DNA of 3,227 bases from a virus. Its lineage: Duplodnaviria > Heunggongvirae > Uroviricota > Caudoviricetes. The stretch is taken from the IMG/VR virus record IMGVR_UViG_2541047736_000005, positions 1 to 3,227 of that record. One strand, 5' to 3'. Shown here piece by piece: positions 782 to 3,227 of this stretch. Numbering within the stretch: position 1 is the first letter of the stretch; each line of letters starts with the position of its first letter. The notes under the pieces were generated by a model. It did no database searches. It was given only the letters and a program-made list of their open reading frames with translations, and had not been told where the DNA came from. The translations under genes were made by a program, and so were the position numbers.

Positions 782-1354
782 TTACATTTCAGGTTGCGTT
801 ATGACAGTCCCAACAGGGTGGTAGCGGTAGATCGTTGACAGTCCAATATCATAGATAATTGCCAGCCGCTTTCTGTCATACCCTTTCTGGAGCAATCTTG
901 CGATCTGCTCATGCTGCTCCTTCGTCAGTTTCGGGCGACGTCCTCCAACTCTCCCTTGTGCTCGCGCAGCAGCCAGTCCTGCCAGCGTGCGCTCAACTAT
1001 CAGTTCACGCTCCATTTCTGCCAGTGCACCCATCATATGAAAAAAGAACCTTCCCATCGGAGTGCTGGTATCGATTGAATCCGTCAGACTGCGAAAATTG
1101 ACACCTTTTGCGCGTAGCTCTTCTGTGAGAGCAATGAGGTGTTTCATTCTTCTACCCAACCGATCCAGCTTCCAGACCACCAATGTATCCCCTCTTTTAA
1201 GGCACTTTAAAGCGCGTTTCAGGCCTGGTCGTTCCGACTTGGTTCCGCTCATTTTGTCCTCAAAAATCTGTTCACATCCTGCGCACATTAATGCATTGCG
1301 TTGCAAATCTGTGTTTTGGTCATTTGTTGACACACGTATGTAGCCAATCAGCAT
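782..1354 (-). CDS. pin: Small serine recombinase, DNA invertase of the Hin/Gin/Cin/Pin family (190 aa)
   Basis: N-terminus MLIGYIRVSTNDQNTDLQRNAL carries the catalytic Ser in the RVST motif. Central blocks GDTLVVWKLDRLGR and SLTDSIDTSTPMGRFFFHMMGALAEMERELIVERT and a C-terminal HTH-like IGLSTIYRY match the hallmark blocks of this family. ATG is the complement of 1352-1354, with a GGGAG RBS (complement of 1363-1367, 8-nt spacer). It lies directly beside tail-fibre cassettes, as in Mu G, P1 C and e14 P. The symbol is family-level only; I cannot say which pin allele. Confidence 0.95.
   Translation of the reverse strand: MLIGYIRVSTNDQNTDLQRNALMCAGCEQIFEDKMSGTKSERPGLKRALKCLKRGDTLVVWKLDRLGRRMKHLIALTEELRAKGVNFRSLTDSIDTSTPMGRFFFHMMGALAEMERELIVERTLAGLAAARAQGRVGGRRPKLTKEQHEQIARLLQKGYDRKRLAIIYDIGLSTIYRYHPVGTVITQPEM
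1201..1261. promoter_or_regulatory. Candidate Fis-dependent recombinational enhancer inside the 5' part of the invertase gene
   Basis: Two 15-bp elements with G at position 1, C at position 15 and an AT-rich centre: GGCACTTTAAAGCGC (1201-1215, nearly palindromic about TTTAAA) and GCTCATTTTGTCCTC (1247-1261). Their centres are about 46 bp apart. In Hin/Gin/Cin systems the enhancer lies within the first ~100-180 bp of the invertase gene with two Fis sites about 48 bp apart. Pattern match only. Confidence 0.25.
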
Positions 1355-1408: not shown

Positions 1409-1434
1409 GAGAGATAAACGTTGGTTTGGGCGAA
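1409..1434. promoter_or_regulatory. Candidate recombination crossover site (gix/hix/pix-like) at the invertase-proximal border of the invertible segment
   Basis: GAGAGATAAACG TT GGTTTGGGCGAA has the AAACx-NN-GGTTT core typical of Gin/Hin crossover sites. The right half-site GGTTTGGGCGAA matches the recalled consensus GGTTTTGGATAA at 9 of 12 positions; the left half matches only in the inner AAAC. The site sits between the invertase start and the fibre cassette, and the cassette reading frame opens exactly here (in-frame TGA at 1408-1410). Confidence 0.45.
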
Positions 1435-2519: not shown

Positions 2520-3227
2520 TTAGTATCCTATTGCTTCAAAATGCAGTGTCGGTGTTTCGCCGAGATTGGGTGTCGTATACGCCACAGTGAATCGCGTTCT
2601 TGATACGTCAGTGCCAGAATCAGTATCGCGATGCGTTGCCAGTGATTTTCCGGCCATTGTTGACTGGGTCGGATAGCTGTAACTCGCTAGTGTTGCCAGC
2701 GTTGCTATTTGTGCATTTGGGAATTGTCTGGGGAAATTAACCCTGTAGTAATGGGTGTAGTACGTCACCCCACCAAGCACCTGCGAGTTGAAGTTACCAA
2801 CTGGTGTCAGTGTCACAGTGCCAGCCTGTCGAATCATACCATTTGGGAGAATATCCCAGGCAGTTTGTCCGTTTCGCGACATACCAAATGCGGACATGTC
2901 CGGGAGTTGATTATTACCGGTTCCGACATCCCGTTTTGCCGCTTCTCCCAATTGAAGGTAATTGAGGACTTCTTTTATACTGCCCATAGCGATAATAGCG
3001 CGACCAATAGCTGTAAGGGTTGTCAGCGCTGCGCGGTCTGCTCCGGTAAAATAAGGCAACCGATCTGCTGCAGTGGCAAGTCCTGCCAGAGCAGTGAGCG
3101 TGGCATCTGCCGGTTGTTTTCCGTTTGCCAGATCGTATGCAGCCTTGACCGCTTTCGGTGTGGCGGCCAGTATTTCAGACGTGCTGTTGATGTCACTGCT
3201 CAATTGTACGGTGCCTTTTGCCGTCAG
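2520..3227 (-). CDS. Tail fibre protein, C-terminal portion (partial; 5' end lies beyond the right edge of the window)
   Basis: The reading frame is open from the window edge (3227) down to TAA (complement of 2520-2522); the M in the track at 3203 is a TTG inside an open frame. SDINSTSEILAATPKAVK...NGKQPADATLTALAGL...LPYF resembles the conserved region of lambda-like side tail fibres (recalled, unverified). It is followed by a divergent tip ending HFEAIGY. Confidence 0.9.
   Translation of the reverse strand: MTAKGTVQLSSDINSTSEILAATPKAVKAAYDLANGKQPADATLTALAGLATAADRLPYFTGADRAALTTLTAIGRAIIAMGSIKEVLNYLQLGEAAKRDVGTGNNQLPDMSAFGMSRNGQTAWDILPNGMIRQAGTVTLTPVGNFNSQVLGGVTYYTHYYRVNFPRQFPNAQIATLATLASYSYPTQSTMAGKSLATHRDTDSGTDVSRTRFTVAYTTPNLGETPTLHFEAIGY

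Follow-up and report, generated by a model that had tools for sequence, protein, structure and literature searches.

The DNA analysed here is a stretch of 3,227 nt (hereafter the window), which carries the junction between a host gene and one end of a prophage, followed by a DNA invertase gene and by two opposed tail fibre cassettes. Positions 1-703 contain the truncated 5′ part of yfaA, a core gene of the E. coli host, which is 100% identical to thousands of genomes, with the identity ending at position 703. The prophage end (704-781; starting with TGATGCGCCGCGCGATAAATG…) directly abuts this gene and terminates 78 bp past the stop codon of the invertase gene. It contains two copies of GCGATAAATG, at 715-724 and 738-747 (direct repeat D9), which may be transposase-binding sites. 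In other assemblies the same prophage end (TGATGCGCC…) adjoins at least 13 different, unrelated host sequences, which argues for transposable (Mu-like) behavior. A relative inserted in csiE, both ends of which are visible (L024), encodes a DDE-type 'integrase catalytic domain' protein, an ExeA-family ATPase, Gam, Mor, gp16, a DUF935 portal protein and a contractile-tail module, and this gene content points to a Mu-like transposable prophage. A layout of this type is shared by the BcepMu-like phages. Judged from these comparisons, the carrier of the window behaves as a Mu-like transposable prophage residing in yfaA of E. coli. A match to the phage-collection entry 'Entero_P88' was uninformative, since this is a predicted-prophage record that includes host genes.

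The invertase gene (782-1354, minus strand), a pin/gin-type gene located outside the invertible segment, encodes a serine DNA invertase of 190 aa, referred to below as Pin. The protein is composed of an N-terminal resolvase domain (Resolvase, PF00239, 8e-51) and a C-terminal helix-turn-helix domain (HTH_7, PF02796, 1e-12), as in small serine recombinases. It shares 77% identity over 181 aa with Gin of phage Mu, and its N-terminus retains the MLIGY(I/V)RVSTNDQ sequence of Gin, including the serine. The distance between the proximal base of the crossover core (1421) and the ATG of pin (1354) is 67 nt, and the same distance (67 nt) separates the proximal boundary of the G segment from the start of gin in Mu. 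A simple scan for a sigma-70-like promoter upstream of pin revealed none.

Within the 5′ coding part of pin we distinguished a candidate Fis-dependent recombinational enhancer (1270-1333). It contains two Fis-like 15-mers on the minus strand, which conform to a loose motif: GTGTCAACAAATGAC (1319-1333) and GCGCAGGATGTGAAC (1270-1284). Their offsets from the crossover centre are +96 and +145, and in gin of Mu 15-mers of almost the same sequence occupy these two offsets. Recombinases of this type carry the enhancer in the 5′ portion of their gene, some 100 bp away from the nearer crossover site, and the distance observed here agrees with that described earlier (PMC3798978). Fis may bind at 1270-1333, as the position and the loose motif suggest. 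According to the title of the work of Johnson & Simon (1985; cited in PMC2724282), Hin requires two 26-bp sites and an enhancer of about 60 bp, and the two sites described below would fit this requirement together with the candidate enhancer. The same region contains one arm of an imperfect inverted repeat (1272-1290 and 1392-1410; arms of 19 nt, 84% complementary, 101 nt apart), which overlaps the distal Fis-like site; the other arm ends at the outer edge of the first crossover site. This repeat may be due to chance.

The invertible segment (1423-2954) comprises the 1532 bp between the central dinucleotides of the two crossover sites and contains two opposed cassettes, each with a fibre tip of the Gp53-like_C family. 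The cassette on the plus strand is silent and has no start codon of its own: it contains a fibre C-terminal part (1423-1890; PF21882, 1.5e-8), whose frame is open from position 1411, followed by a gene for a tail-fibre assembly chaperone of 136 aa (1893-2303; Pfam Caudo_TAP, 4e-31). The cassette on the minus strand contains the expressed variable C-terminal part (2520-2954; Pfam match to Gp53-like_C) and, directly downstream, a 77-aa ORF (2284-2517), taken from the list of open reading frames. This ORF gave no match in Pfam; gene calling recognised it in each of the ten loci that encode the 136-aa chaperone (see below). It occupies the chaperone position of the expressed tip, and 20 bp of it are shared with the 3′ end of the chaperone gene on the other strand.

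The constant part of the fibre gene (2957-3227, minus strand; Phage_fiber_2 repeat) is represented in the window by its 3′ end and continues beyond the right edge. Locus L017 (GCA_014747445.1) matches the whole window with 100% identity at positions 8109-11335, and in this locus the constant part and the expressed tip are continuous and form an intact minus-strand fibre gene of 642 aa. The constant part is built of 168-bp (56-aa) tandem repeats (…SATDSQSETEAATPKAVKAAYDLAAGKAPVSHTHPWSQITGVPAASLTAKGTVQLS…), seen at 3118-3227 of the window and at 11226-12322 of L017. The length of the fibre gene varies from 427 to 779 aa between loci, probably because the copy number of the repeats varies.

The first crossover site (site 1; 1409-1434) has the sequence GAGAGATAAACGTTGGTTTGGGCGAA. 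It is the invertase-proximal site, the topological equivalent of gixR of Mu, and consists of an outer half-site, GAGAGATAAACG, a central TT (1421-1422) and an inner, cassette-borne half-site, GGTTTGGGCGAA, which reads TTCGCCCAAACC on the opposite strand. The core AAACG-TT-GGTTT occupies positions 1416-1427. A TGA triplet (1408-1410), in frame with the ORF opening at 1411, closes this frame upstream of the site. The surrounding sequence contains two copies of AAAC (1416-1419 and 1433-1436), one of GTTT (1424-1427) and two of GATAAA (1413-1418 and 1437-1442). All of these strings had been listed in an earlier note, prepared from the sequence of the window, and each is present at the position given there.

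The core motif is only marginally non-random when taken by itself. With up to one mismatch, AAACCNNGGTTT is matched once in the window against 0.06 matches expected, and 11 of 200 shuffled sequences also contained a match; with up to two mismatches, the 2 matches found, against 1.4 expected, are at the level of chance. These counts are suggestive rather than a proof, and it is the comparative evidence that makes site 1 real. In a comparison with approximately 780 complete E. coli genomes, the homology of the pin-side flank stops at position 1434, i.e. at the end of the 26-bp site. The outer half-site, which the earlier note had described as poorly conserved, proved not to be decayed: GAGAGATAAACG is identical in every related locus examined and, since it remains constant beside seven different inner halves, it is the one form that the pin-side half-site takes throughout this prophage family.

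The note had also predicted an inverted partner of site 1 just to the right of the window. Such a partner exists; its location, though, is within the window, about 1.5 kb rightward of site 1, inside the expressed fibre gene. This second site (site 2; 2943-2968), the equivalent of gixL, has the structure TTCTCCCAATTG-AA-GGTAATTGAGGA, with the central AA at 2955-2956; its outer half may also be read as AAGGTAATTGAGGA. The two 26-bp sites are in inverted orientation and each is composed of two 12-bp half-sites around the same 2-bp core. Aligned in inverted orientation they agree in 13 of their 26 positions, the central dinucleotide among them, with a longest identical run of 5 bp. An automatic search of the window for inverted repeats did not recover the partner of site 1; the sites are too dissimilar, which is why the partner was overlooked by this search and by eye. 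The quality of the half-sites is uneven: one (TTCGCCCAAACC) is near-consensus and three are divergent, including both halves of site 2 (AATTG and TTACC where AAACC is expected).

Site 2 was located from the homology breakpoints between the window and an e14-like locus of E. coli (L001), and from the loci carrying the segment in the opposite orientation. At the left edge, L001 has TTTTCATAAACGTTGGTTTGGGCGAA at the position occupied in the window by GAGAGATAAACGTTGGTTTGGGCGAA, and the two sequences are identical from ATAAACG rightward and unrelated leftward. At the right edge the identity runs through …TTCTCCCAATTGAAGGT and then collapses, and positions 2943-2968 were therefore marked as the second site. 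A further half-site-like sequence, TTCTCCCAAATG (2840-2851, minus strand), is present within the expressed fibre tip; it was rejected, as it has no dyad partner and a junction occurs there in no locus.

An exact lookup of the 136-aa chaperone yielded ten loci, which were sorted by orientation using BLAST against the window. Four of them (L012, L015, L016 and L017) are collinear with the window, while in the others (L013, L014 and L018-L021) the region corresponding to 1418-2959 is inverted relative to both flanks. The constant fibre part keeps its orientation with respect to pin in either state. The insertion point of the window in yfaA is shared with L018 (complete genome CP164724.1) and L020, both of which are flipped, and a second insertion point is likewise represented by both states (L012, window-like; L013, flipped). 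Both orientations thus occur within two independent insertion lineages, which are 99.6-100% identical, so the inversion post-dates the insertion. Both orientations are known from public assemblies.

In the flipped loci L018, L020, L013 and L021 the pin-side junction reads GAGAGATAAACG-TT-CAATTGGGAGAAGCG and the fibre-side junction reads CGTTTCGCCCAAACC-AA-GGTAATTGAGGA (also written, for the same yfaA insertion point, as GAGAGATAAACG-TT-CAATTGGGAGAA and TTCGCCCAAACC-AA-GGTAATTGAGGA). All differences between the window and the junctions of L018 and L020 lie past the TT/AA. The two parental sites have different bases directly to the left (G vs C) and directly to the right (G vs C) of the dinucleotide, and the exchange is therefore confined to TT 1421-1422 and AA 2955-2956. 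The natural recombinants thus place the crossover exactly in the central TT, as had been anticipated in the earlier note.

The segment is flanked by inverted repeats, and its two orientations might be ascribed to RecA-dependent homologous recombination between these short repeats instead of a site-specific process. This explanation appears exceedingly unlikely: the repeats are identical at half of their positions, with no uninterrupted run above 5 bp, the exchange point is the same 2-bp core whatever the locus or cassette type, and a Gin homolog adjoins the segment.

The inversion fuses the silent plus-strand cassette in frame to the constant fibre part, again in accordance with the earlier prediction. 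The crossover TT supplies the second and third bases of a codon in either frame, which specifies Leu (cTT) in the expressed gene and Val (gTT) in the silent one. Translation of the fused fibre of L018 reads …IKEVLNYL joined to GLGETINKASGAMQ… and continues to the stop codon of the cassette, the junction peptide being …KEVLNYL joined to GLGETINK…; the fusion is called as a gene of 651 aa, followed by that of the 136-aa chaperone. The 3′ parts of the fibre gene are therefore exchanged with preservation of the reading frame. These data also bear on the view that site 1 is a near-palindrome that arose by chance between genes and that the flipped loci are assembly artefacts. Such a view could draw on the chance-level frequency of the core motif at two mismatches. 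It is, however, effectively refuted by the reciprocal, base-precise junctions found in independent assemblies (a complete genome and metagenome contigs among them) and by the in-frame fusion that the flipped state yields, and we assign it a negligible probability.

The cassette pair of the window is rare; its chaperone protein has entries in 88 blocks of the collection. A search of complete RefSeq E. coli genomes with the whole window revealed no records covering at least 80% of it. The junction of the window orientation (state A) occurs in none of these genomes, and that of the flipped orientation (state B) is present in them solely as variants of 91-94% identity.

Taking these observations together, we consider it very probable that 1409-1434 is one of the two sites of a Gin/Pin-type switch at the right end of a Mu-like prophage inserted in yfaA. 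Inversion systems of the Gin/Hin/Cin/Pin type depend on negative supercoiling and on a topologically defined invertasome. Gin acts as a dimer on each gix site; the dimers are assembled into a Fis-activated synaptic tetramer, in which double-strand breaks are followed by 180-degree rotation and religation (PMC3575834). By homology with Gin and Hin, strand exchange would be catalyzed by Pin, and inversion would probably depend on Fis and the enhancer. In the proposed mechanism (i) Pin would bind site 1 and site 2 as dimers, (ii) it would cut with a 2-bp stagger at the identical central TT/AA of both sites, and (iii) rotation and religation would invert the 1.53-kb segment. In the window orientation the constant fibre part (minus strand, from 2957 onwards) is joined to the tip encoded by 2520-2954, with the 77-aa ORF downstream. 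Inversion joins it in frame, within the Leu codon (cTT), to the tip encoded by 1423-1890, with the gene of the 136-aa chaperone downstream. Given these two fusions, virions would carry one of two receptor-binding tips, and the inversion may, as judged from the homology with Gin and Hin, have consequences for the host range, as in tail-fibre switches of the Mu G, P1 C and e14 P type, whose two orientations confer different host ranges.

Alternatively, site 1 might be a historical relic, which served for inversion in the prophage lineage, and the switch might now be frozen in this strain, for example with pin unexpressed or the degenerate site 2 too weak. The two off-consensus half-sites of site 2, the lack of a promoter-like site upstream of pin in the simple scan and the single orientation displayed by a single assembly are in line with such a state. 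Against it, the pin ORF is intact and the collection contains an identical protein in over 27,000 blocks, the 642-aa fibre gene is also intact, and both orientations are found in the two nearly identical insertion lineages. A frozen switch is therefore considered improbable, and the Gin/Pin-type switch is retained as the preferred interpretation.

The half-sites were further compared in a wider set of sequences. A 20-mer comprising the pin-side outer half and the TT is present in 36 metagenome contigs. One of these (L056) is a chance match, which shows no homology to the locus and was set aside. We also disregarded L061, a 1268-bp contig labelled Moraxella osloensis, which has the exact pin-side 20-mer (325-344) together with the common inner half-site and probably stems from contamination with E. 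coli or from mislabelling. In the metagenome contigs and other loci, the pin-side outer half is joined, after the TT, to seven different inner half-sites: TTCCCCCAAACC (32 loci), TTCTCCTAAACC (8 loci), TTCTCCCAATTG (7 loci), TTCTCCCAAACC (5 loci), TTCGCCCAAACC (4 loci) and two others found once each. Five of the same inner halves precede the fibre-side outer half, AA-GGTAATTGAGGA. Throughout the 36 metagenome contigs and 23 other loci the outer halves are constant and the inner halves swap, and the break is always at the central dinucleotide. The sites of the family are strongly asymmetric, the outer halves being constant and weak and the inner halves interchangeable. The inner half CCCAATTG departs from the AAACC core, yet it has clearly recombined.

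Close relatives of the locus (L002-L011, approx. positions 7790-9946) contain three crossover sites and three fibre tips, with CGTTTCTATGCC or CGTTTTTATGCG as additional outer halves. Their cassettes are found in several arrangements at one aroA-proximal insertion site, like a small shufflon. They resemble in this respect the multi-site inversion systems, i.e. Min of p15B and a P2-like prophage of EPEC that has three inverted repeats. Sequencing and PCR have demonstrated co-existing orientations for the Mu- and P2-like prophages of EPEC, including a case with three repeats and four variants (PMC4272514). Unlike these multi-site systems, the window has only two sites and two cassettes, and it therefore represents a simple two-state switch.

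The organization of the locus matches that of the P segment of e14 and that of the G segment of Mu. It has the gene order of the latter, in which the constant part of the fibre gene (S) is followed by the variable part, the chaperone gene U, the inverted U′ and S′, and the invertase gene at the right end of the phage. The likeness extends to the probably transposable carrier, the high identity of the invertases, the spacing between the crossover core and the invertase gene, and the offsets of the Fis-like 15-mers. There are, however, several differences: (i) the Mu segment is about 3.06 kb long, twice the length of that described here (1.53 kb), (ii) com and mom follow the invertase gene in Mu, and neither follows pin, (iii) the core dinucleotide is TC/GA in Mu and TT/AA here, (iv) the fibre tips of the window belong to the Gp53-like_C family, and (v) all gix half-sites are near-consensus, whereas the outer halves GAGAGATAAACG and TCCTCAATTACC and the inner half TTCTCCCAATTG deviate; between each site and the gix site in the same topological position, 13 of 26 bases agree.

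Positions 924-2959 of the window, which include the segment and most of pin, are approximately 89% identical to positions 5001-7036 of the e14-like locus L001. The cassette homology stops exactly at both crossover sites, and the variant half-site CCCAATTG is also present in L001; in contrast, the two loci show no sequence relationship in the constant fibre part, the flanks or the pin-side outer half-site. The e14 element itself, with its pix sites and the invertase PinE, is lambdoid, unlike the Mu-like transposable prophage of the window, and its P segment has a published length of 1797 bp, compared with 1.53 kb here. The P segment inverts at the repeats TTGGTTTGGGAGAAGG and CCTTCTCCCAAACCAA (PMC12529663). 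The right half of site 1 together with the core, TTGGTTTGGGCGAA, equals the e14 repeat TTGGTTTGGGAGAA at 13 of 14 positions (PMC12529663). The homology ending exactly at the crossover sites suggests that cassettes are exchanged between unrelated prophages.

The Hin/hix system of Salmonella involves a recombinase of the same subclass, whose enhancer lies within the 5′ coding region of its gene. It differs in that Hin is encoded inside its own segment and moves a promoter, while in the window the invertase gene lies outside the segment and the 3′ ends of coding sequences are exchanged.

The unequal half-sites raise a further, rather doubtful, possibility, namely that the switch is intrinsically biased and that the constant weak outer and strong inner halves allow cassettes to be traded between Mu-like and e14-like prophages. 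In the window state neither half of site 2 (TCCTCAATTACC, TTCTCCCAATTG) conforms to the consensus, and the single good half lies in site 1; inversion shifts it to the fibre-side site. If the occupancy by Pin dimers tracks half-site quality, the forward and reverse rates would be unequal, with a built-in preference for one tip.

The inversion of fibre tips is a textbook mechanism, and the finding, though correct, is for this reason ordinary. It adds one fairly degenerate natural site pair to the Gin/Pin repertoire, and the knowledge of DNA invertases is otherwise unchanged. Recombination at the central dinucleotide could be demonstrated from public assemblies alone, and a reading limited to the sequence had correctly placed a functional recombination site and its exchange point. 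Fibre-tip cassettes are common to a Mu-like transposable prophage and e14-like elements, with the homology ending at the crossover sites. If the suggested role of the half-sites is true, the layout of constant outer and interchangeable inner halves would let unrelated prophages trade cassettes at the crossover point.
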